From the IMG/VR virus record IMGVR_UViG_3300033233_000004, positions 107,837 through 171,836 of that record: a DNA stretch of 64,000 bases. The stretch is one strand, 5' to 3'. A model generated the notes under the pieces. The model searched no databases and was not told where the DNA came from. It worked only from the letters and a program-made list of their open reading frames with translations. How positions within the stretch are numbered: the first letter of the stretch is position 1; every line of letters starts with the position of its first letter. Positions 15,498 through 40,872 of the stretch are shown here, piece after piece. The stretch comes from a virus. Both the position numbers and the translations under genes were made by a program.

Positions 15498-15499
15498 AG

Positions 15500-15775: not shown

Positions 15776-15848
15776 TCAAGGTGTTGGGAATCGAACCCAA
15801 ATTATTCCAATTTCCGATACTGGTACCATACCATTAGGCGACACCCTG
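15776..15848 (-). tRNA. tRNA-Pro(CGG)
   Basis: Cloverleaf, loop AT-CGG-AA. Confidence 0.75.
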
Positions 15849-15920
15849 AAATTTTTGAGGAGTCACGGTCGCACACGCTTCGTGCATCCAAGTTAACCGT
15901 TTGTGAGTTGACTCCTCATT

Positions 15921-16415: not shown

Positions 16416-16455
16416 GTCTATGGTTTCCTTTCTTTGTCAGCGTAACTTATTATTG

Positions 16456-16526
16456 CTGCCCCACAGAGATTCGAACTCCGATAAACACCTTCAAAGGGTG
16501 CCGTCCTTCCGTTGAACGATGAGGCA
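16456..16526 (-). tRNA. tRNA-Gln(UUG)
   Basis: Cloverleaf, loop CT-TTG-AA. Confidence 0.85.
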
Positions 16527-16532
16527 ATTATT

Positions 16533-17039: not shown

Positions 17040-17053
17040 AGTACCTTCCTTTT

Positions 17054-17129
17054 TGGTGCATCCAGTAGGAGTCGAACCTACAACCTTTCGATTAAGAATC
17101 GAAAGCTCTACCAATTGAGCTATGGATAC
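17054..17129 (-). tRNA. tRNA-Lys(CUU), CCA encoded
   Basis: Cloverleaf, loop TT-CTT-AA. Confidence 0.92.
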
Positions 17130-17156
17130 GTATTTTTAAATTCGAACTGTATTTTG

Positions 17157-17228
17157 TGCCGCCACTCAGAATCGAACTGAGGCCTCGCTGCTTAAAAGGC
17201 AGGTGAGCTACCATTACCCCATGGGGGC
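17157..17228 (-). tRNA. tRNA-Lys(UUU)
   Basis: Loop CT-TTT-AA; one acceptor mismatch. Confidence 0.75.
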
Positions 17229-17270
17229 GATTTTATTTCATCCCATAAGGCGTTTCATCAATTGGTGAAA

Positions 17271-17753
17271 CTACTCATTAGGTGAAACTTCAAACGGAGA
17301 CTCCTGTTTAAGAGCCTCAGTCTGTTTAGAACGTAATTCATCAAGTTCCTGTTTGGATTCTATAACTTCTTGTTTCATTGCTTCTACAAGAGTATCCACA
17401 AGTGTAGGAGTTAATGCAACAGACTGACCAGATACTTCCGTATTTCGTTCTTGTTCATCCTTAACAAACTTATAACACGAAGACAGATTTTTCTTGATTA
17501 ACTTGGCATTATTCAAATCAGCACGAATATAACTTTCTATCTTTCCATTGAATAAATATTGTGCTTTAGCACCGTCCATTCCATTCCATATATATCGAAC
17601 AGAACCATCATTGAAAAATAATGCTAATTCAAATGCAACAGTACCTTCTGGAAGATTCAGAGCTTTAATATCTTCATTGATATCCGGTCTATTAACCAAA
17701 CCCATTTCTGCATTAATTTCTTCTGCTGATTTTGTTACTGTATTTTCTTCCAT
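17271..17753 (-). CDS. Hypothetical protein
   Basis: 160 aa, GAGG RBS. Confidence 0.65.
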   Translation of the reverse strand: MEENTVTKSAEEINAEMGLVNRPDINEDIKALNLPEGTVAFELALFFNDGSVRYIWNGMDGAKAQYLFNGKIESYIRADLNNAKLIKKNLSSCYKFVKDEQERNTEVSGQSVALTPTLVDTLVEAMKQEVIESKQELDELRSKQTEALKQESPFEVSPNE

Positions 17754-17849
17754 GATATCCTCTTTGTGTCTGGATATGTCTTGATACTTATGAATTGATT
17801 AAATACTGTCTATTTTCTGGACATTTATCTGGACATAATGTCCAAATTG

Positions 17850-17932
17850 CAGATAGTACGAGACTTGAACTCGTAATCCCAATTAAGGACACCAATATTC
17901 CAAATTGGCTCTTTTCCATTCAGTTACTCTTT
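17850..17932 (-). pseudogene. Degenerate tRNA-Ser(GGA) overlapped by the 3' end of the HNH gene
   Basis: Anticodon, variable and T arms present; acceptor 5' strand poorly paired. Confidence 0.5.
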
Positions 17933-18385
17933 ATTTACATTAGTTGTTGCTCCCCATCCACGAGCTTGTCTATATGCAGTTGTGTCTTGTTCTGGATGAA
18001 GGCTACGAAAATTTCTTTTGTTTATTATTTTACAAAGTTTACATATTCTGCTGTTTCTGTTTGGTGGTATATAAGTATTGTCTTTATCATATGCATGTCC
18101 TTTTGGACAATGTGTTTTATTGGTTCGAGGTTCTCCAACATTACACGCTAAATGACTGAAAGCTATATTACTTAAATCCCAAAATAATTTGGGGTCATTA
18201 TTTAACCATGCAGTCTTATGCTCAATCGACAAGTCTTCTACAAATTCTATACAGCGATTACATCTATAACAAATATTCTCGTTATGAAGAATAAGCAAAT
18301 GAAAGATAATCATTTTACGTAAACGTCCATTTGCCGTTCCAAATGGCATACCTAACTGTGCAGTTTTAATTGCATTAGAGTTCAT
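17924..18385 (-). CDS. Free-standing HNH endonuclease
   Basis: CYRC...SIEH...NIAFSHLACN; second Zn module HCPKGH...CKLC. Confidence 0.8.
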   Translation of the reverse strand: MNSNAIKTAQLGMPFGTANGRLRKMIIFHLLILHNENICYRCNRCIEFVEDLSIEHKTAWLNNDPKLFWDLSNIAFSHLACNVGEPRTNKTHCPKGHAYDKDNTYIPPNRNSRICKLCKIINKRNFRSLHPEQDTTAYRQARGWGATTNVNKE

Positions 18386-18417
18386 TTTAAGTCCTTTGAC
18401 ATTATGAACAAATAGAG

Positions 18418-18506
18418 CGGAGAGGTAGGGACTCGAACCCTATTGGGAGCTTTCGCCCCCCACGGTTTAGCAGACCGTTGCGACGCACCATCTTCGCCGC
18501 CTCTCC
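18418..18506 (-). tRNA. tRNA-Ser(GCU)
   Basis: Loop CT-GCT-AA, long variable arm. Confidence 0.88.
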
Positions 18507-18559
18507 ATGCAAGTTTTCAAATAATGTCAATACTTAGGAGACCTTGCAACCCATACGAA

Positions 18560-18868
18560 CTAATTCAACATTTCCATCCGTTTCACAGATAATAACATTC
18601 TTACAGTAAATACATTGGCTTCATCTTCCATATCATGACATTCACAAACAGGAAAGAAGACCAATCTTGAAGTACCATCACCACGAGACCCAAATCCAAG
18701 AGCAGCCTCATCACCATCTGGAAGAATTACACCCCAATTATTAGTCGATGCTGTACAAATCCAGCAAGATGCATAACTGTTCTTTAATGAAGCAATCTTA
18801 TTTTTGATAGCTTTGCTGAATTCTTCTATAGTTGGTATATTCATACAGTTTTCGCCAATCCTGTTCAT
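18560..18868 (-). CDS. Hypothetical protein with Cys pairs
   Basis: CWIC and CECH. Confidence 0.5.
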   Translation of the reverse strand: MNRIGENCMNIPTIEEFSKAIKNKIASLKNSYASCWICTASTNNWGVILPDGDEAALGFGSRGDGTSRLVFFPVCECHDMEDEANVFTVRMLLSVKRMEMLN

Positions 18869-19360
18869 TATTTATCTCTGTTCACAAAAAATGAACATAT
18901 CAAAAAATGAACACAATGAGCTTACGCCAACTTCTGCTTTAGGTCATGATTTCTCTTGCGGCCTGTACCCGCCTTCATCGGTAAAGAATGCGTCTACCTC
19001 TGGCTGTTTCAGTTGCACACATACTGGTGGTACTATCGAACTGACCGTAGCTTTCAGGGCTACGACCAGTTCTCCCGCTCATTCTTAGTGTGGTCGGACG
19101 TTTCTCTCATCCCTATTCCTACAGGGATAGAGCCATGACTTCTCTGTTGTGTTTCATTTCATACTTCTCGTTCAAACAATACAAACACATTTGTTGCGTT
19201 GCATAACCGTTATCCAATTCATATCTCTTTGTTTCAACATATGCATGATGTTTGAATATATGACACAGTATTGCTCTACCGAGAGGTTTCAACGAACCTA
19301 CATATATCACTATCCTCGGAAAAAGATACGGAATTCGTATGACAATTGGATTTTTCATTG

Positions 19361-19433
19361 TGTAGGTGAAGAGATTCGAACTCTCACGCCAGCGTTGGCA
19401 ACGCCGTATGCTAACCATTAACATCACACCTAC
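19361..19433 (-). tRNA. tRNA-Gly(GCC)
   Basis: Loop TT-GCC-AA. Confidence 0.88.
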
Positions 19434-19518
19434 AAAAACTTAGCTGTCTCATATTGCTCTATCGTGCGACATTCAACCCATACGAATCTTAATAGGCACT
19501 CCTATCCGAATGGGTTTG

Positions 19519-19593
19519 TAGCCTCAGAAGGAGTTGAACCCTCAAATCTCTGCGTTCGAAGCGCAGCATGTTATCCAGTTACACCATGAGGCC
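19519..19593 (-). tRNA. tRNA-Arg(UCG)
   Basis: Loop CT-TCG-AA. Confidence 0.88.
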
Positions 19594-19803
19594 AAAATGA
19601 ATCTTTTACAGTTCGACCAACATCAAGGTCAAAGTCGAGTTCAAAATAGAAGCAACTTACGTTACCTTGTATTTAACAAGTTCCACCGACAGAAAGCGTT
19701 TGGTAGTAAGTAAGGGAGACTATTATCGACTGGCGGTGCCATAACCGTTAGTCCAGTTGATGCTTTCGTCTTCTTCTTTATGGCAAGTACTCCTATTTTT
19801 TTG

Positions 19804-19874
19804 AGCGGGTAGTGGTAGTTGAAACCACGTCCGATGGTTGGAAGCCACCTATAATACCGTTATACGATACCCGC
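19804..19874 (-). tRNA. tRNA-Gly(UCC)
   Basis: Loop CT-TCC-AA. Confidence 0.85.
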
Positions 19875-19875
19875 A

Positions 19876-20130
19876 TTATTCTTTATCCCAAAAATTCACA
19901 TTAGAAAAATCGTGTGGTAAACCTAATGAATCTTCTAATTTATTCAATTGATAATTTTGATAATCTAATTGCTGTTGTTGAAGCTTGTATAGAGACTCAT
20001 ATTGCATACGTTGAGCTTTTGCTGTTACATATGTTCCATGTTCTTTAACAAGAGAGTTTAATTCAATACAGAACCAAAGAAGTGCAGTAACTAATAAAAG
20101 AGTCATTACTACTTTTATAACATTCATCAT
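19876..20130 (-). CDS. Small membrane-anchored coiled-coil protein
   Basis: N-terminal TM segment, Gln-rich. Confidence 0.55.
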   Translation of the reverse strand: MMNVIKVVMTLLLVTALLWFCIELNSLVKEHGTYVTAKAQRMQYESLYKLQQQQLDYQNYQLNKLEDSLGLPHDFSNVNFWDKE

Positions 20131-20189
20131 GCAACCTTATTTGATTGTTTTCTCTGAAAATCAACCATTAAAGGTTGATTATAACTTTG

Positions 20190-20263
20190 TACCCATGGCG
20201 AGACTCGAACTCGCATCGACGTAGGGTTTAAGCCTACCGAATATGCCATTCTTCTACATGGGC
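20190..20263 (-). tRNA. tRNA-Leu(UAA), short variable arm
   Basis: Loop CT-TAA-AC; directly after TTGACT-17-TACATT promoter. Confidence 0.8.
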
Positions 20264-20346
20264 ATAATGTACACAAACGAAAATCAAAAGTCAAGAGAAA
20301 TCTAAATAAAAATAGAGTTGCTGGCAGGATTCGATACCTGCCATTG

Positions 20347-20901
20347 TTATACGCCATGCGTTGCGGCAACTTCCAGCTGCACATCGCTGGCAATCTCGTT
20401 TCCCCATGTATCCCACCCGTCAACTCTTCGACGGGCGAACAATTCAACGCGAGGATTCAATCCTTTCGTCGCTCGTTCAATTAACTGGCGAAATTCTTCT
20501 GGCTTCTCACTGTGTCGCAATGCTTTCAACTGGAGAAAATTCGGTTCTTGACATCTAAAAGCCTTCACACGCCCACGTACACCAACAAGGATATGCTCTG
20601 TTTGTCCTCTGAACCAATAGCCCATTCCGAGACTCATTATCTTGCGCCACGTCAGCATTGTCTTGAAGGAATATCCCCACGCCCTGAGAACTTGAAACCC
20701 TTCTTCCATCATCGGAACGGTTACCCAAAGAAAAAGCACACTGTTGTTATCAGCAATTTCGCGCACGTTCAATCGACAAATTTCATCAACAGTCATTGTC
20801 TTGTATTGGTATTCTGCCCCGCTTTGCATAGACTCACCCGTTTTCTTGTTTCGATATGTCCACGGGGGGTCTGCATATATTATCTGATATCGTTTTTCCA
20901 T
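20347..20901 (-). CDS. MT-A70 family N6-adenine methyltransferase
   Basis: IIYADPPW, GMGYWFRGQTEH, HSEKP, ELFAR, WGNE. Confidence 0.92.
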   Translation of the reverse strand: MEKRYQIIYADPPWTYRNKKTGESMQSGAEYQYKTMTVDEICRLNVREIADNNSVLFLWVTVPMMEEGFQVLRAWGYSFKTMLTWRKIMSLGMGYWFRGQTEHILVGVRGRVKAFRCQEPNFLQLKALRHSEKPEEFRQLIERATKGLNPRVELFARRRVDGWDTWGNEIASDVQLEVAATHGV

Positions 20902-21025
20902 TGCTCAAATCGTTGCCGCAAAACACGCACGGCGTATAACAAGCGGGTTAACGCAAGCCCTACCCAAATTGGTTTTGAAAAGCATCGTCTGGCAAGCCCT
21001 TCGCCTGCTCCAACCCGACTGGACG

Positions 21026-21289
21026 TTAGCCGCCATTTCGCTTACGCACATTTTCTTTACGCCAAAGTGCAAGCCCTGATCGTCCAGCAAGTTTGTCAAC
21101 AACCGTAAATGCACCACGTATAAATTGACGACGTTCTTCTTCTGTTGCAAACCCGTGATGTTTTGGGAAATCGGCTGGTATAGCCCAGCAGTTAAGTTTA
21201 GTCCACCACCGTGCCAACCGAGCGCGCAAACGGCGGCTCACAATCGTGCTTACGTCGCTCACTCTTTTAGATTTCTTCATAGAATTCAC
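21026..21289 (-). CDS. Hypothetical cassette-borne protein
   Basis: Stop codon coincides with inverted-repeat end. Confidence 0.45.
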   Translation of the reverse strand: MNSMKKSKRVSDVSTIVSRRLRARLARWWTKLNCWAIPADFPKHHGFATEEERRQFIRGAFTVVDKLAGRSGLALWRKENVRKRNGG

Positions 21290-21350
21290 TCAACACCTTT
21301 CTCATTCATAAAAAGCGTGGAGTTCGGTGTGTGCATTGTTGGCGCACACG

Positions 21351-21641
21351 TTAACTGCAAGGTGGCGGTGGAAGTGGCATCCAATGCGTTATATTGAACG
21401 CAAACTCCGTTCCTTCCCATTCGCAATTATGGCTTATTCCTTCTCTTGTTTTCATTGTCATAAATGATGATAAGTAACCAACCCTAATATCTTTCCTTTC
21501 CTCTCCCGTATGCGTTTTCCAATCATCAAACAATAGAACTTCTTTTCCTAATTCAGGTAGTTTGTCAACCACCGCTACCCAGTTAACACCACCTTGCTGC
21601 AATGCGGGTTTCTTCTTACTTTTTGAGTTTGTAGTTTTCAT
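21351..21641 (-). CDS. DUF551-like phage protein
   Basis: WVAVVDKLP...ITHWMPLPPPP. Confidence 0.8.
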   Translation of the reverse strand: MKTTNSKSKKKPALQQGGVNWVAVVDKLPELGKEVLLFDDWKTHTGEERKDIRVGYLSSFMTMKTREGISHNCEWEGTEFAFNITHWMPLPPPPCS

Positions 21642-21855
21642 ATTATTTTGTTTTTATAGTTAAGTTTTCCACTTCACAGTCAATCCTGCCAAGTTGTATC
21701 ATCAGGCCGTCTGTCTTTGATTTCGTGCCAAGCAATTAGTCGAATGAAATCAATCTGTGTAAAAGCGTCCATTGCTCACTCCTTTGATGTTTGAATTGTG
21801 TTCGCAACGTCGGACTTACGCCGTCACGCTGGTTGCCATGCGGTGCATTTTATAG

Positions 21856-22089
21856 TCACCGCTCGACAAGCGTATCGTGCAAATCTCGGTCTGGTTTCGG
21901 TACAACCTTTGCATTGCCGGGGACATATCCCCACCGAGTCCCACAGCAAAGGCATTCGTACTGTATTACACCGATCAGTGGCGTTCCCGGAGGATCACCA
22001 GTTCCAGCTATTCTTGAATAATCTGGAATGTATGAATCATCAACTCTCATCACGTATTTACAAACACATTCTCTATGGCTCATTTTCAT
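21856..22089 (-). CDS. Small Cys-containing hypothetical protein
   Basis: CVC...YECLCCG. Confidence 0.4.
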   Translation of the reverse strand: MKMSHRECVCKYVMRVDDSYIPDYSRIAGTGDPPGTPLIGVIQYECLCCGTRWGYVPGNAKVVPKPDRDLHDTLVER

Positions 22090-22254
22090 TTTACCCCGCT
22101 CAAATTATTGTACGCACCGACAACTAACAATGCAAAAGTACGGCACTGGCCGAAAGGAACTTATCTCCTCGATTTACCACGCCCCGATAAGTGGATGACG
22201 TAGACAAGCATAAGGCACAATCTGCTTTAGCGTCTATCTTCCGCCACAGCACCT

Positions 22255-22330
22255 TGGTGCTCCCACTACGAATCGAACGCAGGTCTCTTGAGTGTAGGTC
22301 AAGCGTGATACACCACTCTACTATAGGAGC
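22255..22330 (-). tRNA. tRNA-Val(UAC), CCA encoded, C33
   Basis: Loop CC-TAC-AC. Confidence 0.82.
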
Positions 22331-22339
22331 AAAATTATG

Positions 22340-22411
22340 TACTCTCAAAAGGAATTGAACCTTCATCTTAGATTTAGGAAATCCATATCCTATCCATTGG
22401 ACGATGAGAGC
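22340..22411 (-). tRNA. tRNA-Arg(CCU)
   Basis: Loop TT-CCT-AA. Confidence 0.82.
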
Positions 22412-22499
22412 AAATGCAATGGTCAGACGACTCCCGATAGCCTTATACAGATTCATCTTGCGACTGGTAGAAGCTACCCTTTAACGTTCGTATTAATAG

Positions 22500-22573
22500 T
22501 ACCCACGGTCAGACTCGAACTGACACTGTACGGCTTCTCGAACCGTTCCCTCTACCAATTGGGCTACGAAGGC
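22500..22573 (-). tRNA. tRNA-Leu(GAG), short variable arm, C33
   Basis: Loop TC-GAG-AA; weak acceptor stem. Confidence 0.65.
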
Positions 22574-22628
22574 GGTACGAGTGATTTTAACGAAGATGAG
22601 TAAAATCAAATCCGCCAAACGGTCTTAG

Positions 22629-22702
22629 TACTACGTAGGAGCCTCGAACTCCTAATCTCCTGATTGAAAGTCAGGTGAGTTATCCATTTCCTCTAACGTA
22701 GC
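22629..22702 (-). tRNA. tRNA-Glu(UUC)
   Basis: Loop CT-TTC-AA. Confidence 0.85.
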
Positions 22703-23055
22703 ATTTAGTCGAATCTGAAAGTTCAACTCTATTCGTCGCCCTTTTTCGTACAAGTGCAGGGTGAATATCTTTTGCACTTGCAATTATTACATTGATGCTC
22801 TGGCTGTTTATTTGTTGAAGCCCGAAGTTGTCGAAGACCTTTATACTTAGTTGGGTCAAATGCTGTAACTACACCGCGCATATCTACTGTTGTTCCATTA
22901 TTCATCGAGTTCTTTCCGTTTCATGTAACCGCATAATTCTCAGACTCTCGGATCGCCAATTGTCCCTCTGCTATCCGTCTGCTAATACTATTCCGTCCCT
23001 TGCCATCAAACGAAGTACTTCTTGCTGCCGAGCAGTGAGTATCACATAAGGATGG

Positions 23056-23308
23056 TTAATAGTCTTCACAGTCATAACATCTGCACTCTGCACAATGCTT
23101 AACACCATGGTTGTGTTCGTCTGCCAGTTCAGCATCGTTACACCACGTACCACATTTCTCACATTCTACGACACTGTTCTCCGAAAGATAGTGCTCCAAC
23201 TCTTCGAGGTCAGAAAACGCCAATCCATACTTTTGGAGTATGTCAGCTATGCTTTGAGCAGTTCCTAACAAGTCGTCAGCAATCTTCGCTTTGAGTTCGA
23301 GTTCCATC
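23056..23308 (-). CDS. Small zinc-finger protein
   Basis: CEKCG...CAECRCYDC; probable start MELELK. Confidence 0.5.
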
Positions 23309-23311
23309 AAC

Positions 23312-23821
23312 TTAGACCTTGATACATAGATAACTGAACCCGCTACCTTTTCTGTACATCTTGGTGATTTGACAACCACCAAAGACTCCATGCACCCATT
23401 TCATATATACATGTAAACGTTTGTTTGCTTGCCATGTGCCTGTTTTCCCGATACAAGGTCTTCCACTACGATTTCCTTCATATACAGAAATGTAGATGCA
23501 ACCACCAACCTTCACATGTCGTCTTGCCAACCAAAGCACTTCTGTAATACCAGTAGATGTCTCGATGACATTTAGAACATTACACAAAGTAACAGTGTCA
23601 TAGTCATATCGTTCGAGCATTCTGGCATTGTGGTCGGATGTTCTATTGTAGGGGTCATAGATGAAGTTCCCTACACTTCGTTCCGCCAAATATTTAGTTG
23701 CTTCCTCGAACTTTCCACCACCAATATCCAGATTGCTGGTATGTGGATACCAGTTTACTAACTTAAACACTGCTGGTATCTGCTTGATACAGGTTCGTGC
23801 TGAACGATGTATTGTATCCAT
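23312..23821 (-). CDS. SAM-dependent methyltransferase-like protein
   Basis: NLDIGGG, YDPYNR, CNVLNVI. Confidence 0.75.
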   Translation of the reverse strand: MDTIHRSARTCIKQIPAVFKLVNWYPHTSNLDIGGGKFEEATKYLAERSVGNFIYDPYNRTSDHNARMLERYDYDTVTLCNVLNVIETSTGITEVLWLARRHVKVGGCIYISVYEGNRSGRPCIGKTGTWQANKRLHVYMKWVHGVFGGCQITKMYRKGSGFSYLCIKV

Positions 23822-23835
23822 GGTATCTCCCTTTG

Positions 23836-23924
23836 TGCCCTAAGTGGGACTCGAACCCACAATCGTTTCTAATGTTTGCCGTAGGGTTTGAGCCTACCGA
23901 CTTTGCCAGTTTGTCTACAAGGGC
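23836..23924 (-). tRNA. tRNA-Leu(CAA)
   Basis: Loop CT-CAA-AC, long variable region. Confidence 0.82.
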
Positions 23925-24100
23925 GTTACTGTATGCATCCGATACTTGTATGTCTCTTCGTGTTATCGCATATCGCATATTGCGATATGCAAATGCTCGT
24001 TTGGACGGTTTCTTTGTCTTGTGGCTTCACAAGCTCTTTGCGATGCTTAAGAGCCAGATGAACCAATTGTCGTATCAAACTTCTGCTTGGCTTTTCCATG

Positions 24101-24174
24101 TACCACATAAGGGCCTCGAACCCTTAATCTTCTGCTTGAGAGGCAGATGTGTTAGCCTATTCCACTAATGTGGC
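24101..24174 (-). tRNA. tRNA-Glu(CUC)
   Basis: Loop CT-CTC-AA. Confidence 0.85.
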
Positions 24175-24408
24175 ATTTCCGCTCTTTGCTCCCCACTTCA
24201 TCATCTTCCAGACTCTGTGGTAGATGAAGTACAGCATAATGCGTATACCGATATATGTGAGACTTGTTTGAATAGAGTGTATTAAGATGTAAATAAGAAT
24301 CAATCCGAATAATTCCCACACAACGCCTTTTACAAACGTCCGAATATAGCTACGCTTCTTATCTGTCATCTTATAGTATCCACTTTTCTCCACATTCTTG
24401 ACATTCAT
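24157..24408 (-). CDS. Small membrane protein (DUF2061-like)
   Basis: RTFVKGVVWE...LYFIYHRVW. Confidence 0.6.
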   Translation of the reverse strand: MNVKNVEKSGYYKMTDKKRSYIRTFVKGVVWELFGLILIYILIHSIQTSLTYIGIRIMLYFIYHRVWKMMKWGAKSGNATLVE

Positions 24409-24555
24409 ATAATGACGACTTTGGACGAATGGGTTTGAACTTGACTTCTGGTAAACCTATCAGCATTCTTCCATTACTTAGATGAAAGAATCTGCACCAC
24501 ATTCGTCGCCAGAAACTTGGGTCTCTTTTTTCCATATGGCCTTTCTACTTGTTTG

Positions 24556-24630
24556 TACTCGGTGTAGGATTCGAACCCACGTTGACGCAGAATATAAGTC
24601 TGCCGCCTTAACCTGTCGTGCCAACCGAGC
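24556..24630 (-). tRNA. tRNA-Ile(UAU)
   Basis: Loop CT-TAT-AT. Confidence 0.8.
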
Positions 24631-24741
24631 ATAAAAACCGACAAATAGAATCGAAAACCAAACTCGTTTAATATACAGTTCGACTATAAATATTGGTCAT
24701 ATCCCTCTATATATATACTATATAGAAAGGATAACTACATC

Positions 24742-25353
24742 ATGACAAATTCCAAACAACGACAAGTCGAAGGACAACACATTACTGCGGCAATGTCTCA
24801 TCAACGTTATCTAATACGAATAGAAACATACAAGCAAACTCCAAACTTATGTGCACAGTGTTATGCACCGCTTGCTTATAGCCACCGAAAAAACAAATTC
24901 TGTTCTCATTCTTGTGCAGCTATTGTTACTAACAGGCTTTTTCCAAAAAGACAACAAACAAATGGAACAAGAGAATATCGAAGACAAGGAAAATGGCGTA
25001 AACAATTTAGAAAAAAAAGGCTCCGTGACCTGACATTACTGGAATATTTAGAACGAACACACGTTAAACCTCTTCCAGCGATGATAAAGAAATCTGCTCT
25101 TCGTTCTTTTGCTCGACATTGGAATCAAGACATTCTCAAAAAACCGTGTGCAAATTGTGGATATGATAAACACGTTCAATTAGCACATATAAAAGCAATT
25201 CGAGATTTTCCATTAACAGCAACTTTGGGAGAAATTAACTCTCGAACAAACGTCATACAACTTTGCCCAAACTGTCATTGGGAATTCGATAATACCTTCC
25301 TTAAAATCTCTGTAGGGACAGAAGGATTTGAACCTTCAATTTCTCGATTATGA
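24742..25353 (+). CDS. Free-standing HNH endonuclease (opposite strand)
   Basis: CAQC...FCSHSC; CANCG...AHIK...NVIQLCPNCH; AAAGGA RBS. Confidence 0.85.
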   Translation: MTNSKQRQVEGQHITAAMSHQRYLIRIETYKQTPNLCAQCYAPLAYSHRKNKFCSHSCAAIVTNRLFPKRQQTNGTREYRRQGKWRKQFRKKRLRDLTLLEYLERTHVKPLPAMIKKSALRSFARHWNQDILKKPCANCGYDKHVQLAHIKAIRDFPLTATLGEINSRTNVIQLCPNCHWEFDNTFLKISVGTEGFEPSISRL

Positions 25354-25385
25354 GCCGAGCGGATTAGCCATTCTCCTATATCCCT
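25313..25385 (-). tRNA. tRNA with CAU anticodon (Met or Ile2)
   Basis: Loop CT-CAT-AA. Confidence 0.78.
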
Positions 25386-25462
25386 AAAAAGTACGTACCC
25401 CCAAAGAGGACTCGAACTTGGATGTTACTCGCTACTGCCGACCTCAACCCCACTATAATTTT

Positions 25463-25927
25463 TTACGGAACAGGTCGTAATGATGTTATATTTCTATTAC
25501 CATCTACTCCAATTCTGAATGTTGCACCAACTTCGACAAACTGAGCAAGCAACTCACTGTATGGACTAATTACAGTAATGCCAAATTCTTTATTACCTTG
25601 CTCGTTACCAATCTGGTCATTCCATTGATTAACTAATGAAAGTACTGGCTCCTGAAATTGATTTACCGGAACTCCTCGTAAAACATTGGTGTTGGATTGA
25701 ACCACGCCAACAAAACCTTCAGTACTATACAAAAATGCTTGTCCATTATCCCAAGCAGAAAGTGTTACAACACCTACTTTCTCCAAAGACTGTACAGTAG
25801 TGGAGATTGGATTAATGTTTGAATCTGATGCTTGTGTACAGCCAGAACAATACAAACAAACTGCTGTAAACAAAAGCAACAAACTGGCTGAAAATATCTT
25901 AACTGCTTTAGCCGTTTGACTCTTCAT
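25463..25927 (-). CDS. Secreted protein or lipoprotein
   Basis: Signal peptide with CSGC; AGGAG RBS. Confidence 0.65.
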   Translation of the reverse strand: MKSQTAKAVKIFSASLLLLFTAVCLYCSGCTQASDSNINPISTTVQSLEKVGVVTLSAWDNGQAFLYSTEGFVGVVQSNTNVLRGVPVNQFQEPVLSLVNQWNDQIGNEQGNKEFGITVISPYSELLAQFVEVGATFRIGVDGNRNITSLRPVP

Positions 25928-25985
25928 ATAAGTATCTCCTTAAATTATGTGATTTGTTATTTTAGTGAATTAGTGTTGTGAATTG

Positions 25986-26062
25986 TACCCTTGATGGGAA
26001 TTGAACCCACATTTTCATCCGTTATGCACGTTCTGCTTAGAAGGCAGAGCCATTACAAGGGC
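25986..26062 (-). tRNA. Atypical tRNA-Arg(UCU) lacking a D arm
   Basis: Acceptor, anticodon (CT-TCT-AA) and T arms intact; only TAATGGC between acceptor and anticodon stems. Confidence 0.65.
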
Positions 26063-26150
26063 AAATCTAATTGTGACTGGCTTACAGCATATCATAAGTT
26101 CACTTACAAACGAAGCTACTATCATGCAAGGGTTTGTCTGTAAGCCATCG

Positions 26151-26221
26151 TCCGCCCAAGAGGAATCGAACCTCTATTACCAGTATATCGGACTGGCTTC
26201 CTACCGTTGAAAGACAGGCGG
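26151..26221 (-). tRNA. tRNA-Ile(GAU), C33
   Basis: Loop CC-GAT-AT. Confidence 0.8.
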
Positions 26222-26297
26222 AAAAGTATATCTTATTTACTTGGTTCATCAAGGTTAATACGAGTAAACTCATCAATGTCGATGTTGTGCGCCATGC

Positions 26298-26507
26298 TTA
26301 GTTTATCCCCTGCCGACATCCACAATTCTGACAGTAATCGGTATATTCGGGCCGATCAATGTGTACCACCATTTCAGCGTGGGGATCGCCGCACAGAATC
26401 ACTTTTCGATGAACTCGATCATACACAATCGAATCTGCGGGTCGATCACAGTCATCGTCGGGATATTCGCACTTGTCTTTTCCAGTCAAATGTCGTACTT
26501 CGCTCAT
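26298..26507 (-). CDS. Small zinc-binding hypothetical protein
   Basis: AGGAG RBS; several Cys/His. Confidence 0.55.
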   Translation of the reverse strand: MSEVRHLTGKDKCEYPDDDCDRPADSIVYDRVHRKVILCGDPHAEMVVHIDRPEYTDYCQNCGCRQGIN

Positions 26508-26659
26508 AAAGTTCTCCTTTCATTTAATCGGCATCGCACTACCCACTAAAAATACAAAGAATAAAGGGACAATGTGGAACCCAAAGTCAACTTAGCCGCC
26601 TTACCATGCTGTGTACGGGAGACAGGAGTAAACCGTACATGAGAACATTGTCCATTGAG

Positions 26660-26733
26660 TGGACACAGGTGAGATTCGAACTCACAACCTCCGCATTGCA
26701 GGTGCGGCGCATTCCCATTAATGCTACTGGCCC
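26660..26733 (-). tRNA. tRNA-Ala(UGC), C33
   Basis: Loop CC-TGC-AA; bulged acceptor. Confidence 0.78.
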
Positions 26734-26852
26734 CAAAAAGTCATTACACTGGTCAACCACTGCGCTACCCATCTGGATTGCTCTATGCGGTTATGGATTG
26801 TCTCCGCCGAATAGTCCAGCATAAGCCTTGTCCGTTGTATGCAATGACTTTG

Positions 26853-26925
26853 TACCATCATACAGATTCGAACTGTATCTTTGAAGTCCACAACTTCACG
26901 TGCTATCCATTAACACTATGATGGC
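26853..26925 (-). tRNA. tRNA-His(GUG)
   Basis: Loop TT-GTG-GA. Confidence 0.8.
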
Positions 26926-27222
26926 ATAATACTTCCAGACCCAACGTTTGAGGGTTATAAAGACCCAAGTCTGGAAGTTATTTTTATACTATGTTCCCAT
27001 CCACCGCTTATGCAGCAGATACACTGTCCATTCAGCCTCACAATTATGACGACCGTTAAAGTGGGAACTTCTTTTTTTAACCTCTGGCGAAGTTGTCTCC
27101 GCTTTCCACTCGACTGGCGAACGATTTGAGAAGTAGGTTTCGAGCCTTGTTTCATTTGTCGTTCCTAAATCAGAGGGTGTTACCTGAATCATTCTCTTAA
27201 ATTGTCGTCCAATGATTCATTG

Positions 27223-27299
27223 CAGGACGTAGAGGAATCGAACCTCTTCGCTATTTGCACAGGTTTTGGAGACCTGCCGGAGACCATCTCCCACGTCCC
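27223..27299 (-). tRNA. tRNA-Trp(CCA) with enlarged variable region
   Basis: Loop CT-CCA-AA. Confidence 0.75.
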
Positions 27300-27520
27300 A
27301 TTTGTGGTACCTTCCATAGAACCTCTTAAGATGCTGAGAAAGATACCATAATTTTATTAAGTCCCTTATCTGCGGTTTTTGCACAGTGAACTGTGCAAAA
27401 ATACTCACAAAGGGACTATAAATACGGGATAACCTACAGGTGCGACCTGCTTCTGTATCGTCGGATTATCAGCGACTATCCAATATCAAGATTCCCTTGA
27501 ATCCTGTTCTTGGAGTGGTG

Positions 27521-27596
27521 TAGCAAGAGCAGGATTCAAACCTGCGATTTCTTGATTATGAGTCAAGCGAGGACGGTCAGACTCCTCTATCTTGCA
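27521..27596 (-). tRNA. tRNA-Met(CAU), initiator-like
   Basis: Loop CT-CAT-AA; unpaired U1:U72. Confidence 0.78.
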
Positions 27597-27597
27597 G

Positions 27598-27671
27598 TCA
27601 AGGTGACAGGATTCGAACCTGCGACTTTCTGGCCCCAAACCAGACGCTCTACCAGACTGAGCCACACCCTG
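27598..27671 (-). tRNA. tRNA-Pro(UGG)
   Basis: Loop TT-TGG-GG. Confidence 0.92.
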
Positions 27672-27761
27672 AAGTTATCTAAAAAACAAACCATTTTGAC
27701 TACGCTCTGAATCTCGTTTACAACCATTGCAGAATTTGACCATAAAAATCAACTACCTTAG

Positions 27762-28174
27762 TGGACGTGTCGGCAATCGAAGCCGAGTCCAAAGTACTAC
27801 TAATAAAAAATCATTCACAGGTTTAGTCAGGCTTAGAACTCTTTGGTGCCACTACAAACCCGACGAACTCAGGCAACCGCAACAAAGCATTTGTTCAGTC
27901 CACGGTGCTTTGTACCTTCCGTGTTTCGCCATCTCCACCATCTGGTTTTTTGTCGTTGTGAGGTGTGTCAAACAGACCATATACCAGAACCTCACGAACT
28001 TATACCATTACTGGCACAAGTTCACTCTCGTCTGCAAAGACCAAAATACCAGCCTCGTCAACGAAAGCCGTAGAAGATTTAGCTTCTGCGTTTGTGTTTT
28101 TTAGTTACATTACGGTGTAACAACCCCGACCTGCATTCTTTACTAATTTTACCCTGTCGAATCCTTTCACGCCC
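27762..28174 (-). ncRNA. ssrA: tmRNA
   Basis: 5' GGGCGTGAAAGGATTCGAC; 3' T arm and CACGTCCA with G3.U70; tag ORF 28089-28000. Confidence 0.92.
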
Positions 28175-28210
28175 ATTGTATTACAACTATCTCTTTTTTC
28201 TCTGCTCTTT

Positions 28211-28483
28211 TTACAAGTGTCGATGACCAGTGTATACAAAATGCTTTCTGTAAATTTCTCGTGTTGGTTTCCTATTACTACCATTTGTTAAGAACAACTC
28301 AGGATGCTCATCTCCTTGTTTGGTAACAAATACCGAAAAGGTATTACAAGCTAAGAATTCGTCAGCACATCTTTTCTGGAATACACATGTATCACAAGGC
28401 GACGGAACCAGAAGTTCACCCATGGATGCTTCAATTATGGATGCTTCTTCCTGCGTAAGATATTTTTGAATAAGATTACTCAT
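28211..28483 (-). CDS. Hypothetical protein with Cys cluster
   Basis: Promoter and AAGGAG RBS; PCDTC...C...C. Confidence 0.6.
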   Translation of the reverse strand: MSNLIQKYLTQEEASIIEASMGELLVPSPCDTCVFQKRCADEFLACNTFSVFVTKQGDEHPELFLTNGSNRKPTREIYRKHFVYTGHRHL

Positions 28484-28550
28484 GTATCTCCTTGTTTGAG
28501 TAATATACTCATATCATCTGTAAAAGTCAAGTGAAGTCTAAACTTTTTTG

Positions 28551-28623
28551 TGGGGCAAGTAGGAGTCGAACCTGCTTATCTGGATTTTCAGTCCAGCACA
28601 CTGACCACCAGTGTTATCACCCC
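28551..28623 (-). tRNA. tRNA-Phe(GAA)
   Basis: Loop CT-GAA-AA. Confidence 0.85.
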
Positions 28624-28812
28624 AATAAGAGGCTGTCTCTAATGTATGTCTCCTACAGTGCAACAGCCTCTTGGCTCTCGAAGGAGTCCTTTATTTGCTT
28701 TGTAGGCTAACAGCTTGTTTTTACCACAACGTCTTGTAGTATGGGTCAAGCATTATTCCCATGTCCTGTATCTCAACATCCCATAGAACGTTGAGGTTCA
28801 GTTTTTTGAAAA

Positions 28813-28885
28813 TCGTCCCTGTCGGAATCCGACCGACATCTCTCCTTGAAAATAAGGAGTGTTCTAAGCAGTTAAACTAAGGGCA
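28813..28885 (-). pseudogene. Degenerate tRNA-like element
   Basis: Cloverleaf-like with 8-nt anticodon loop and non-consensus T loop. Confidence 0.45.
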
Positions 28886-28888
28886 TTT

Positions 28889-29747
28889 CTATGATTTCGA
28901 TATTTCATTTACACCATGTTTTTCTAAGCAGTCTGGCGTAATACAATTTCCTTCTGAATCAACTTGTATTGGGCCACAACCTTCACAGAGAACTACAGCA
29001 TATAATCCTTGTGCTTCTTCTTCTATTGTTGTTATTCCAACAAAATCACCTTTATGAATGTCACCACCATTATGTGGATATAAATTCTCTGCACATTGTC
29101 TACAGAATTCTGCCATATTATCTCCTCTTTGGTAATCTTATTTCACTACGTCCATCATTAGGGTCGAAAGACTCGTATCCACGATACCTAAAGAATTGTT
29201 GTGACTTTTTATTCTTATCTAACACAACGTTATTCTTGACTATTCTAAAACCAGTTGGATATTGGTCAATAAGTTTTCGCTGTTGTTTATTATGCTTTTC
29301 ATTGCTTAAAAATGTCATCTGAGGCTCCAACTAAAATCTCTCCATGGGCACCTTTTAAAAGAATAACATTTACACCCTTTTCAAATAGGTTTCGTGCCAC
29401 TTTATACTCATCGACATTAGTCAGAACCTGATTGTGTTTGTAACCAGAGTCTTTGATAGCTTTAATTTCTCGATGAGAGGTATGCCATGCAAACACTGTT
29501 ACTTTTTCAGCCATATTTACCCTTTGTCAAAATGTTTGTATTTTTCGGTAAAGGATACAAATCTGACTTCTATATCTTGCAATGCATCTGAAACACAAGC
29601 GTAAGGGCCATACGTAGTAATCATATTACCATGAATCACCATAGTAGCATACCAACAACCATTTCCCTTGTCCCAATAGATACCACAACCATCTTGTTCA
29701 GTACCACAGGTAAAATGTCTTGTTCTTTTATCATATGTCCATACCAT
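28889..29747 (-). CDS. Run of four small hypothetical ORFs (28889-29116, 29118-29330, 29299-29514, 29517-29747)
   Basis: Tightly packed co-oriented ORFs with RBS-like sites. Confidence 0.55.
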
Positions 29748-29764
29748 AGAATCTCCTGTTTACG

Positions 29765-29855
29765 CGGTAAGTGACGGATTCGAACCCTCAAAACATCTTT
29801 CGACGTTCAACCAATTTTCAAGATTGGGCCTCGCACCAATGAGGTCAGACTTACC
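29765..29855 (-). tRNA. tRNA-Ser(UGA)
   Basis: Loop CT-TGA-AA, long variable arm. Confidence 0.8.
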
Positions 29856-30263
29856 AAAACTAACCTATTTTGAATACTATCTATAATTTGAACATTTGTG
29901 CAAGGCAAAACAGACACAAATACCCAACCGTTATCTGCAAGCCGTTGTCATTCGTAGCGGCTCACTGCCATCACCTAATTTCCGTTGTGGCACGACCTAT
30001 CCGCTTTTTTCTGTCAAGCCAAATTCGTTGTTTCCGACAATGAAAAACTCATGCTCTCTGTCATCAATGAGATAATCATCGTCCTGTAATTCCGGTTTGT
30101 TCTTGGTGACAAATACTACTCCGTTGGGTTGTAATGCTAACCATACCTTTATCTTCATGTCTTTCGCTCCTTTTCAAAATCTAAACAGGTGAGGTTTTGA
30201 ATCTCTGGTTCATCTGCTGATACTACAGATGCGTCTTCTTCTCTTTAGACGATACCTGTTGTG

Positions 30264-30335
30264 AGCCGCAAATGTGAATCGAACACACACCACCTGACAT
30301 ACCAAGTCAGTGCACTACCATTATGCTACTGCGGC
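30264..30335 (-). tRNA. tRNA-Thr(GGU)
   Basis: Loop TT-GGT-AT. Confidence 0.85.
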
Positions 30336-30349
30336 ATTACTTATTATTA

Positions 30350-30421
30350 GGCCAACGACTTGACTTGAACAAGCATCTCTCGATTACGAAACGAGAATTC
30401 TACCACTTAAACTACGCTGGC
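30350..30421 (-). tRNA. tRNA-Thr(CGU)
   Basis: Loop TT-CGT-AA. Confidence 0.78.
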
Positions 30422-30625
30422 GTTTCTTTCTTCCACATAATGGTAGATAATCTCACCAAATGGAACGACAGTGACCTTTGACTTCATTTGAGAAGTTTGA
30501 GGAGTCTTTGGATGTCCAAAAAAAGCACTATAAATCCAAGCTCCAATTAACATTGATATAAGGTTAAGTCCCATGATGTAATGTACATAATCGTAAATCA
30601 AAAGTCAAGGTAAATCTGAACTATT

Positions 30626-30700
30626 TGGAGCCACAAATCCGATTCGAACGGATGCCATTATCTTACAGGGATAATATACTTCCAACTATACTATTGTGGC
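30626..30700 (-). tRNA. tRNA-Thr(UGU), CCA encoded, C33
   Basis: Loop CC-TGT-AA. Confidence 0.8.
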
Positions 30701-30704
30701 ATTG

Positions 30705-30776
30705 AGACCAGAGTGGAATTCGAATCCACATACGTAGTTTTGCGGACTACTACCTAAGCCCTTCGGTCATCTGGTC
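30705..30776 (-). tRNA. tRNA-Cys(GCA), C33
   Basis: Loop CC-GCA-AA, U73. Confidence 0.82.
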
Positions 30777-30987
30777 AATGTCTAATTAAACGTTGCTACT
30801 TCAACAACCAATTGGGATTTCTGTCATAGTTGTTGCGAGCATAAAGTATGACAGAAATAACATTCGCCTTTTGGAAACTTTGGTAAAACTTTCATATGCT
30901 CAATTTCAATCTCAAAGAATGCTTCCAACTCTTCATTTGATTTAAGATGGAATTTCTTTTTATTTCATCAATGAATCTACCCATGTG

Positions 30988-31059
30988 CTGCGGACGAATG
31001 AATCGAACATTCATGATAGGCTTCAGAGACCTACATCTTATCCATTAGATGAATCCGCA
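30988..31059 (-). tRNA. tRNA-Gln(CUG)
   Basis: Loop CT-CTG-AA. Confidence 0.85.
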
Positions 31060-31060
31060 A

Positions 31061-31366
31061 TTATTTCTTTTTATCAGTTTTCTCACGAGTACGAAGCTCA
31101 TTAAATAGAGCTACAACAGCGTCCGCCGATTTCAAATCCTTCTTGCGTTCTATTGCTCCTACTACAGCGTAAGGATAAAAACTTCGCCAAGTATCTGTAC
31201 TCGCAAAGTACGTGATACTGAATCTATGTTCCCAATTTTGTAATGTAACTACAAGATGGGGTGTACCATTGAGTGAAAATCTGAATTCCGCACCTTCAAT
31301 TTTTTCACCCAACTCTTTAATCTTGGCTTCAATAACTGCTGAGAATTTGGTTATTCTGTTTCCCAT
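31061..31366 (-). CDS. Hypothetical protein
   Basis: Likely start MGNRIT after GAGG RBS. Confidence 0.6.
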   Translation of the reverse strand: MGNRITKFSAVIEAKIKELGEKIEGAEFRFSLNGTPHLVVTLQNWEHRFSITYFASTDTWRSFYPYAVVGAIERKKDLKSADAVVALFNELRTREKTDKKK

Positions 31367-31387
31367 ATTAGGTTCCTCAATCTGTTG

Positions 31388-31462
31388 TGGCTCCGACAGC
31401 AAGAGTCGAACTTGCAACTCCACGGTTAACAGCCGTGTACTCTGCCATTGAGTTATGTCGGA
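31388..31462 (-). tRNA. tRNA-Asn(GUU), CCA encoded
   Basis: Loop CT-GTT-AA. Confidence 0.92.
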
Positions 31463-31920
31463 ATAAAATCTGATGTTCTATTTCCCGCCAAGAGTAGGAT
31501 AGGTAACTCTAACAAGTGTTACTCTCACCCGCATACTCGGTGCCTATCTATGTGTATGCGACCCAAGGTAACACAGCGTACATAGATACATCAGAAAGCT
31601 TCAAATTCTCCTATATAACTAATACCATATTCCAAAATAGGAAAATCAGAAGTCATGATTTCATCTTCCATACGAAAAGCTTCTATAACAGCTTCTTCTT
31701 TTGTCTGAAATACTTTAGAAGTTCCAAAATAACTTCTCAAAGTATCTTTTCTTTCTTGAGAACCTTCTGGATAATAATCTATATTCTCATTAGATCGTCA
31801 GAGGTCTACTCAAAGTGTCTTCTCGACACATCCAGTATCAACAATTCAAAGTAGCGAACTTCAAATTTACACTGGTCTTAGTTTTCACCAACGATTGATA
31901 CCTTATCACGTCCCAAAATA

Positions 31921-32018
31921 GTTCTTTTGACTGGATTCGAACCAGTAATCATTCGCTTCTTGTGCACATGGGCGAATACGGGTATTCCGCTCGGCTGCCA
32001 GTTTCGACACAAAAGAAC
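31921..32018 (-). ncRNA. Non-canonical tRNA-like RNA
   Basis: Perfect acceptor and T arm, D loop; tiny anticodon arm and long extra arm. Confidence 0.55.
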
Positions 32019-32207
32019 ACGATATATCTCCTTTTTTTATGAACCAATAGAATAACCACGCTCTTTTAAAGCAGCAAGTATCTTTTTTGCTTCAGAAATA
32101 GCTGCTTCTTTTGTATAACTTTCGTCGCTTATTGAACGAAATCCATACAGAATAGTTGCGATGTCTTCAACAAATAATTTTTCCATAAAAGTATCCTTCT
32201 TTCTTTG

Positions 32208-32292
32208 TGTATCAGGATGGATTCGAACCACCAAGGATTTCTCCTACTTGTGGGTTACAGCCACATGCCTTACCAATTGAGGCTACAGATAC
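32208..32292 (-). tRNA. tRNA-Tyr(GUA)
   Basis: Loop CT-GTA-AC, long variable arm. Confidence 0.85.
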
Positions 32293-32321
32293 AAACTTGT
32301 AATGGACTCCCAAATTTAATG

Positions 32322-32392
32322 CGGAGCCAGAGAGAATCGAACTCTCAATCCTTGCGTGACAGGCAAGCAGTTTGCCATTAACTTATGACTCC
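32322..32392 (-). tRNA. tRNA-Asp(GUC)
   Basis: Loop CT-GTC-AC; first tRNA after promoter at ~32428-32457. Confidence 0.88.
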
Positions 32393-35021: not shown

Positions 35022-35273
35022 TGCTTGGCTCTCCTTTCTTGGCTCGGACACCGTGTCCTTGCATACTACAATATAACACATGACATTTTTGTCGTTCACT
35101 CGGTTGCGATTCTGTTCTGTGTTCGCAAGTCAACACGGTCTAAGTCATTACGCATCGGTCAATAATTCTGTCAAGAGCGTTTCCCGAATTGCGCTCGATC
35201 TCGTTTGGAAGTTGCCGATTGCCGCTCACGCTCACAAGAAAATTTATTTTCAAGAGCCTGATTCCTGTTCCGA

Positions 35274-35507
35274 CTGTCATCTCATACACACGTGCGAGTT
35301 GCAACGGGGAATCATGAATCAAATCAGAATCTCAGCAAACTGTCATCTCATACACACGTGCGAGTTGCAACATCTGACCGAGCCGTAAGATGTTGATCGC
35401 AGCATTCCTGTCATCTCATACACACGTGCGAGTTGCAACACGAACACTCTCTTCTATGAGGATGATTACCACAAGCTGTCATCTCATACACACGTGCGAG
35501 TTGCAAC
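35274..35507. CRISPR. CRISPR mini-array: 4 identical 32-nt repeats, 3 spacers (34, 36, 36 nt)
   Basis: CTGTCATCTCATACACACGTGCGAGTTGCAAC at 35274, 35340, 35408, 35476. Confidence 0.95.
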
Positions 35508-35533
35508 CACTATACAAATCTGTCAACACCAGT

Positions 35534-36814
35534 CTATACAATCTGTATAGCTTCCGCTAACCCAAACTTTTGAGACCCTTCTGACTCGATACACCCGTCA
35601 GTCGGTGAGACGAACGTCTCTTTACAGGCTTGCGCCTGTTGGCTCTGACCGAGCCTTAAGATGTTAATAGCAGCATTCAAATCTCGATTTATTTCAAGCC
35701 CACATTCGCATGTATATATTCGTTCCGCTAACGTCTTCTTTTGCACACGACCACACTGTGAACATGTACTTGTTGTTCCTGCTGCTTTTACTTTCACAAA
35801 GACCCTACCAGCTTCTTCCGCTTTGTAGGCAATCTGATTCAAAAACTGTGACCAACCAGCATCAGCAATAGACTTATTCAATCCGTTCGGTAAACTTGAT
35901 TTTGGCTTACATCGCTTAGACATTGTTTTTACGTTCAAATCTTCAACAGCAATCAACCCATACTGATTTACAAGCGTTCGAGACAATTTATGGTGAAAAT
36001 CTGCTCGTTGTCTACGAATCTTGGTATGTAAAGCAACAACTCGTTTTTTAGCGTTTTGACGACGATTAGAGCCTTTGGCCTTGCGACTCAAACTTTGTTG
36101 TGCTTCGGTTAGCGCAACCGCCGCCTTACGATACCAACGAGGGTTTTCTATTGCCTGTCCAGTAGATAACATAGCAAAGGTGTTCAAACCAACATCAATA
36201 CCGACTTGTTTGTCGGTATTAGGTAATCTTTGACAAGGTACATTATTACAAGAAAATACAACATACCACTCATTTGCTTCTCGTTTGATTATTGTAGTCT
36301 TGATTGTCCCAAGAATACTGCGGTCTATCTTGACACGAACAAGACCAATGTTCAAGAATCTTACAACGAATCTACCACTTGGGAGCTTCACAAGTTTACA
36401 ACCAGAACCGTATGTTGGATACACAAGACTATCCCATCTATCTCGTCCTTTGAATCGAGGAAAACCTGCGGCTTTACCTGCACCTACTTGTACACGTTTC
36501 TCGAATGCCTTGTAAGCCTTATGTAGACGGTCTAATACCGCATTACAAGTTTGTGCTGGTACTTGACCAAGACCAGCAGGGTCAGAAATACGGGCTTCTG
36601 GATAAAATCTCATCTGGTCATACGCAGTAAGCGATGATACAGAAGACGTATATTTCTTTTTGTTCTCATTCCAAAACTTGGGTGTAGACTTGTACTGATG
36701 TATACGCTGTTCCAACGCAGCATTATACAGAGACCGAGTTGCATTCAATTGTAACTCAAGTTTCTGAATTTGAACCTTGTTAGGATACAAACGATATTTA
36801 AATGATTTACGCAT
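35534..36814 (-). CDS. tnpB: TnpB-like RNA-guided RuvC nuclease, CRISPR-adjacent (candidate miniature type V effector)
   Basis: KYRLYP HTH start, GFPRFK, RuvC-I GIDVG, RuvC-II VEDL, Zn ribbon CSQC/CEC, RuvC-III RDLNAAINI; 26 nt from the array. Confidence 0.92.
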   Translation of the reverse strand: MRKSFKYRLYPNKVQIQKLELQLNATRSLYNAALEQRIHQYKSTPKFWNENKKKYTSSVSSLTAYDQMRFYPEARISDPAGLGQVPAQTCNAVLDRLHKAYKAFEKRVQVGAGKAAGFPRFKGRDRWDSLVYPTYGSGCKLVKLPSGRFVVRFLNIGLVRVKIDRSILGTIKTTIIKREANEWYVVFSCNNVPCQRLPNTDKQVGIDVGLNTFAMLSTGQAIENPRWYRKAAVALTEAQQSLSRKAKGSNRRQNAKKRVVALHTKIRRQRADFHHKLSRTLVNQYGLIAVEDLNVKTMSKRCKPKSSLPNGLNKSIADAGWSQFLNQIAYKAEEAGRVFVKVKAAGTTSTCSQCGRVQKKTLAERIYTCECGLEINRDLNAAINILRLGQSQQAQACKETFVSPTDGCIESEGSQKFGLAEAIQIV

Positions 36815-40800: not shown

Positions 40801-40872
40801 ATCTCCTTTTTGAGTGATTGGATGACAACTTTTGACACATTCAATATACTACATAGAAATTTAAAAGTCAAG
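40801..40872 (-). repeat. 72-bp promoter/leader/RBS cassette, copy 2
   Basis: Identical to 8762-8833. Confidence 0.9.

Follow-up and report, generated by a model that had tools for sequence, protein, structure and literature searches.

How can a phage carry, directly behind a nuclease gene, a CRISPR spacer that nearly matches this very gene, where did such a spacer come from, and what follows for the resident copy? This question is raised by a complete large phage genome (171,836 bp, with direct terminal repeats; rated 100% complete), of which a stretch of 64,000 nt, called the window below, was analysed; positions are those of the window, and positions marked C1 are whole-genome coordinates. 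Judging from sequence, we consider it fairly probable that the spacer was captured from a closely related but non-identical copy of the same tnpB gene, and the case is that of a single suggestive spacer at one locus. The elements concerned are as follows.

35534..36814, minus strand: tnpB-like effector gene, 426 aa (NF040570 at 289 bits, above the cut-off; ISDra2 TnpB match)
35274..35507, minus strand: CRISPR mini-array with 4 identical 32-nt repeats and 3 spacers, beginning 26 nt past the tnpB stop
35440..35475, minus strand: spacer 3, gene-proximal, 36 nt, no near-match in own genome
35372..35407, minus strand: spacer 2, 36 nt, in the sense of the tnpB mRNA
35306..35339, minus strand: spacer 1, gene-distal, 34 nt, no near-match in own genome
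35643..35678, minus strand: resident near-match (self site) of spacer 2, 32/36, codons 380-390
35679..35681, minus strand: TTT, candidate PAM 5' of the self site, consisting of the third base of the D378 codon and the first two bases of L379

Effector gene and mini-array

The RuvC residues D207, E291 and D378 and the zinc finger (C351/C354/C369/C371) of the 426-aa TnpB are intact, and the three RuvC residues are invariant in the alignments; assignment to TldR, or to any nuclease-dead repressor, was rejected because these catalytic residues are retained. ISDra2 TnpB is the best solved relative both by sequence (E 1e-44, residues 2-387) and by fold (top match 8H1J); the tail past about residue 400, which overlaps the scaffold RNA, is of low confidence (pLDDT <50 at 407-426). 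Membership in type V-F (Cas12f), C2c8 or Cas12f2 was rejected on the basis of the curated NCBIfam cut-offs, under which both the C2c8 profile (187 of 350 bits) and the Cas12f2 profile (69 of 450 bits) remained. No homolog exceeded 52% identity over the full length or 65% over the C-terminal part. The closest homologs are 44-52% identical; arrays are absent from all seven that were checked, and three of these adjoin tnpA. Because these nearest homologs have no arrays, the array-linked TnpB looks like an independent and recent capture.

Neither Cas1 nor the Y1 transposase tnpA (PF01797) was found in the phage genome. The absence of tnpA and a right end of ACAG, not TCAC or TCAA, led us to reject the status of an IS605 insertion sequence for this locus. 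Several other features of the genome can be mentioned here: a second, ordinary IS605-type tnpB amid virion structural genes (C1:81713-82924, minus strand), with a doubled right-end hairpin and no array; a short ORF (C1 ~18950-20400, minus strand) flanked by GGY-NN pentamer tracts that are split by CTAAA-loop hairpins; an exact 72-bp duplication (C1:116598-116669 and 148637-148708; window 8762-8833 and 40801-40872), resembling a minus-strand promoter with its ribosome-binding site; and 35 tRNA genes with a tmRNA (27761-28174) at 15499-32392 on the minus strand.

The four repeats of the mini-array start at 35274, 35340, 35408 and 35476. The exact repeat was not found in viral contigs, and no report of it was found in the literature. 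Arrays sharing this repeat end were found by a scan at 14 loci, and at eight of them the array comes immediately after a gene of the TnpB or Cas12f-like kind, arranged as here. Near-unmodified IS605-type TnpBs of about 30% identity, with downstream arrays of the same repeat family, occur in two bacterial MAGs (L024, 250-2067; L017, 5900-7705), and in two viral contigs (L012, 4400-6241; L013, 11761-13421) a small array of this family comes after a Cas12f-like or TnpB-like gene, the L013 repeat having a type I-C-like ending. Another locus, L029, has behind its homologous tnpB (after 1658) three 10-nt units that resemble one another and are spaced by about 50 nt, perhaps a transposon-end guide array. 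If polarity is read from the degenerate distal repeats in L017 and L024, spacer 3 is probably the newest in the phage array.

Scaffold RNA and reading direction

The 3' end of tnpB contains the following predicted RNA elements.

35520..35670, minus strand: predicted omegaRNA-derived scaffold (putative tracrRNA), z = -5.1, overlapping the tnpB 3' end
35641..35655, minus strand: predicted pseudoknot hairpin with a 5-bp stem and a 5-nt loop, nearly all inside the self site
35544..35551, minus strand: candidate anti-repeat, tentative and weak (6 bp, -4.5 kcal/mol), in a position as in the stronger anti-repeat of L024

None of 200 shuffled sequences folded as well as the tnpB 3' end. The scaffold ends in a residual transposon-right-end-like sequence (35520-35525), its last six bases being those of the repeat, and 12 nt follow this residual right end before the array. 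These 12 nt have a single 11/12 match elsewhere in the genome, which is at chance level. At 35508-35551 there is a short internal duplication at the residual right end, in which a 13-nt terminal-hairpin stretch recurs, plus one base, before the first repeat.

The last four bases of the hairpin loop, GUCA, can pair with UGAC at positions -6 to -3 of both the repeat and the residual right end. When loops and ends were chosen by eye in 12 other loci, the same pairing was found with compensating changes, with 4/4 pairs in 11 loci and 3/4 in one; L045, an ordinary IS, tolerates one loop mismatch. Among the loci tabulated, only the phage locus and the array-linked L024 have the GUCA loop, and ten array-less tnpBs have other loops; the scaffold and the repeat end in ACAG, and ten array-less homologs in TCAC or TCAA. 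L024 shares both the repeat end and the pseudoknot loop with the phage locus. Spacer 2 itself carries the GUCA loop variant that matches the UGAC end of the phage repeat. From the folded scaffold and the covarying pairing between loop and repeat end we infer for the phage locus a split guide composed of a putative tracrRNA and a crRNA, although the candidate anti-repeat is weak.

The first 16 nt of the repeat on the minus strand are shared with the direct repeat of Cb5Cas12f1, a repeat that stands ahead of its spacer (PMC10090079, supplement). This agreement and the loop/repeat-end pairing indicate that the crRNAs are read on the gene strand, as the earlier note had assumed for spacer and target, and the plus-strand orientation was rejected on the same grounds. 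With this reading, spacer 2 is in the mRNA sense and can act only on DNA, and TTT becomes the 5' flank of the self site.

Origin of spacer 2 and the resident allele

Recomputation bore out the match described in the earlier note: spacer 2 agrees with 35643-35678 at 32 of 36 nt, with mismatches at guide positions 10, 13, 23 and 36 counted from the PAM side. The three internal differences (GCG/GCT, ATC/ATT and CGG/AGG) are each silent and the fourth is the terminal base, so that both sequences encode residues N380-Q390 of the 426-aa ORF. The match had been placed in the RuvC-III coding sequence; this is correct as to the gene and residues, but the spacer begins just past the codon of the catalytic D378 (35683-35681) and covers the helix following the RuvC-III aspartate, leaving out the aspartate itself. 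In the whole 171,836-bp genome the runner-up ungapped match of spacer 2 is 22/36, against which the resident match is clearly not due to chance, and the best own-genome matches of spacers 1 and 3 are only 21-22 nt.

The TTT before the self site on the minus strand was also confirmed in the sequence (35681-35679), and it is plausible as a functional PAM. The repeat has, by comparison with L013, what we take to be a type I-C look. Acquisition PAMs of type I-C include TTC, TTN and TTT (PMC8482600), and TTT would fit acquisition by a type I-C-like host module.

The peptide encoded by spacer 2 is a motif of the clade, found exactly in 8 of 259 other parsed homologs and with one residue changed in 33. 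The view that any tnpB of the clade would match equally was rejected, because six genes with the identical peptide reach only 23-28/36; random synonymous coding of the peptide gives a mean of 25, and a match of at least 32 has a probability of 1-3e-4. These values point to a functional tnpB very near the resident gene as the source. Three random substitutions would all be silent with P = 0.011, which makes drift of the spacer itself unlikely and points to coding DNA under purifying selection as its origin. The phage's own second tnpB (34% identity) was rejected as the source, since it reaches 15/36 at the homologous site. The earlier proposal of a homologous gene of a rival phage or element thus stands as to a near relative (32/36 versus 23-28/36), and the choice among rival phage, host or plasmid, and own ancestor depends on the weighing that follows.

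Exact and degenerate searches for a target of spacer 2 gave none in viral contigs and none in metagenome contigs, and BLAST hits in plasmids and phages were confined to pieces at the level of chance, none of them a better target than self; the perfect hit in a tnpB-like gene that had been anticipated was therefore absent from these collections. Two weak plasmid matches in the BLAST fall within tnpB, which a conserved motif would lead one to expect. Among co-occurring related viruses none was found with a perfect protospacer, nor was any close relative of the tnpB found among the sampled sequences; an exact search with spacer 3 gave no match, and spacer 1, run by BLAST against plasmids and phages and compared with the own genome, gave no target. 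In sequencing run X1, which may be the source sample, no second tnpB allele was found at >=80% in the 86% of records covered, a result that is no evidence of absence because contigs drop rare variants. The X1 contig with spacer 2 has a depth of 25 versus about 12.5 for the flanks, and a variant contig departs from the window sequence at 35267; this is a hint that the unit has a second carrier or that a duplicate was collapsed. Two X1 records contain related sequence next to the array: one is 99% alike at 35056-35267 and passes into unrelated sequence 6 nt short of the distal repeat, and the other is 87% alike at 35056-35126. The array side of the locus seems, from these contigs, to vary between strains.

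That the captured copy belonged to a sibling cassette carried by a co-infecting phage or element has, in our estimation, nearly an even chance; that it was the IS-type donor copy, located in the host or on a plasmid, is unlikely. The sibling cassette is favoured over an ordinary IS605 element by the loop in spacer 2, which fits the phage repeat end; this is suggestive only, in view of the loop mismatch tolerated in L045. A close whole-genome sibling might be expected to give near-matches for spacers 1 and 3 also, which have none in the own genome. Three random spacers from a 172-kb sibling would hit the tnpB gene with a chance of about 2%, and the single case is therefore no proof of selection.

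We infer the spacer source, the PAM, the cleavage and the protection of self in the following way. The near-unmodified IS605-type TnpB would use a scaffold RNA from its own 3' end and crRNAs from the small array, and this array would have been filled by Cas1-Cas2 of the host, as the phage has no cas1. Spacer 2 would have been captured from a sibling or otherwise related tnpB copy, and its crRNA would direct cleavage of that copy, which would strike both the rival's nuclease gene and the beginning of its scaffold RNA. Differences at guide positions 10 and 13 would spare the resident allele, and the silent pattern would have arisen by normal divergence of a sequence constrained both as protein and as RNA. 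For ISDra2, two mismatches together prevent cleavage when they lie within positions 1-12 but no more than weaken it at 13-16 (PMC13639567); because only position 10 lies inside 1-12 and 13 lies outside, the self-protection is borderline. The two mismatches probably protect the resident allele, and the true PAM may or may not add to this protection. Concerning the earlier idea that the resident allele escapes through silent differences, the differences are indeed silent, but selection is not needed to explain them, and position 23 lies outside a guide of 16-20 nt, which fits plain divergence of lineages.

An extension of this mechanism is homing, in which the crRNA would cut the tnpB allele of a sibling phage during co-infection, at a point some 140-170 nt away from the array, and the uncut resident copy would serve as the repair template, so that the rival's gene end, scaffold and array would be converted to the resident version. 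We regard homing as quite improbable; if it were true, one cassette allele would drive itself through the phage population.

The spacer may instead have been taken from the phage's own tnpB, with the gene escaping later by silent mutation or by recombination with the allele of a relative. The closest known sequence to spacer 2 is indeed the resident gene, the candidate PAM and the pseudoknot loop are common to both, and at each of the three internal differences the spacer has G/C where the AT-rich resident (GC3 0.33) has A/T, which is weakly compatible with later drift. For escape from self-targeting, loss of the spacer or a single change in the seed or PAM would suffice. The resident gene, however, differs at four positions, two of which (23 and 36) lie beyond a 20-nt guide, and silent PAM-breaking changes that were possible in D378/L379 have not been used; moreover, the four repeats show no drift at all. 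The two guide-distal mismatches and the undrifted repeats favour a separate lineage over an own ancestor, and we consider such self-acquisition unlikely.

Selected autoregulation would mean that the crRNA binds the resident site without cutting, blocks transcription at the scaffold start and thereby lowers the output of tnpB mRNA, scaffold and array. The resident site has nine perfect PAM-proximal pairs and TTT, and these pairs could permit binding in view of TldR, a TnpB-derived protein that binds with a seed of about 6 nt (PMC10705468); the crRNA is also complementary to the template strand where the 5' end of the scaffold is encoded. The self site nevertheless lies in late coding sequence and not in a promoter, spacer 2 has its complete length and a central place in a normal array, and the nuclease is intact. 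Any binding could be an unselected side effect. The comparative data likewise give no sign of self-binding as a conserved design: in 11 other arrays of the same repeat type, none of 40 spacers (23 of them beside a TnpB/Cas12f gene) matches its own locus above 23 nt. The suggestion in the earlier note that imperfect pairing gives autoregulation has accordingly found no comparative support, and we regard it as quite improbable.

An assembly artefact, or a local duplication of the gene end mimicking a spacer, is extremely improbable: the self site lies at a distance of only 271 nt, and a single sample is the source of the locus, but spacer 2 has a normal length between perfect repeats and four differences from the gene, and a separately assembled Logan contig of run X1, possibly the source sample itself, spans repeat-spacer 2-repeat without any difference and argues against assembly error.

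Comparison with known systems

The basic parts of the capture reading have their counterparts in known systems. ISDra2 TnpB with its reRNA (PDB 8H1J, 8EXA) has the same active site, zinc finger and 3'-overlapping pseudoknotted RNA; the phage locus differs in that its genome has no tnpA, its right end is not TCAC/TCAA, and an array follows. TranC, as far as it is described via PMC13565253 (Jin et al., Cell 2025), combines an IS605-type TnpB with a short array and acts with a scaffold RNA and a crRNA. The phage locus resembles it in its unexpanded IS605-type TnpB beside a short array of 32-nt repeats, in having no Cas1, and in its ISDra2-like fold; the omegaRNA-derived scaffold and the replacement of the transposon end by the repeat end, predicted here from the sequence, are further points of likeness. 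TranC is further marked by DNA cleavage with reRNA guides as well as crRNA guides, and a possible counterpart of the former in the phage locus is its residual right end at 35520 with 12 nt behind it. CauTranC9 is similarly phage-borne and ISDra2-like (bioRxiv 10.64898/2026.03.27.714800). The phage protein is, however, far from LaTranC, to which it gives only a distant match in the C-terminal part (E 2e-20), and its nearest homologs have no arrays. We call the locus TranC-like, as a provisional assignment.

Cas12r of the Thermus Lalka phages is also a TnpB-derived phage nuclease with an array close behind and no cas1 (Cas12r has neither cas1 nor cas2), and its spacers are directed against elements with genes similar to the phage's own, i.e., integrases (bioRxiv 10.64898/2026.04.20.719267). 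It differs in having 564 aa, type I-E-like 29-nt repeats, an ARG PAM and no tracrRNA, as against 426 aa, 32-nt repeats and a predicted scaffold RNA in the present phage. In our literature search, no spacer of a TnpB array was found against its own effector gene and scaffold.

The nearest parallel for spacer 2 itself is provided by the viruses SPV1 and SPV2, whose mini-arrays target each other near the arrays and in which point mutations prevent self-targeting (PMC6858448; review PMC11656645). Common to both cases are a small viral array and a near-match to the carrier's orthologous locus close to the array, together with, on the reading proposed above for the phage, spacers added by the host and differences that spare self; here, in contrast, the effector is encoded by the phage itself, and what the spacer matches is the gene of this effector with its scaffold RNA. 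Spacers directed at kin with self-sparing differences (SPV1/SPV2) and TnpB-derived phage effectors with host-filled arrays (Cas12r, CauTranC9) are thus already known. To these the phage locus adds an uncharacterised 426-aa effector that apparently represents an independent TnpB-to-CRISPR transition. If the target is a sibling cassette, young phage TnpB-CRISPR systems would fight via a stretch that is both nuclease gene and guide scaffold, and in which the victim can change few bases; the natural pair of a perfect and a near-perfect target can in any case serve as a gauge of the mismatch that a minimal TnpB-CRISPR effector needs for distinguishing self from kin.
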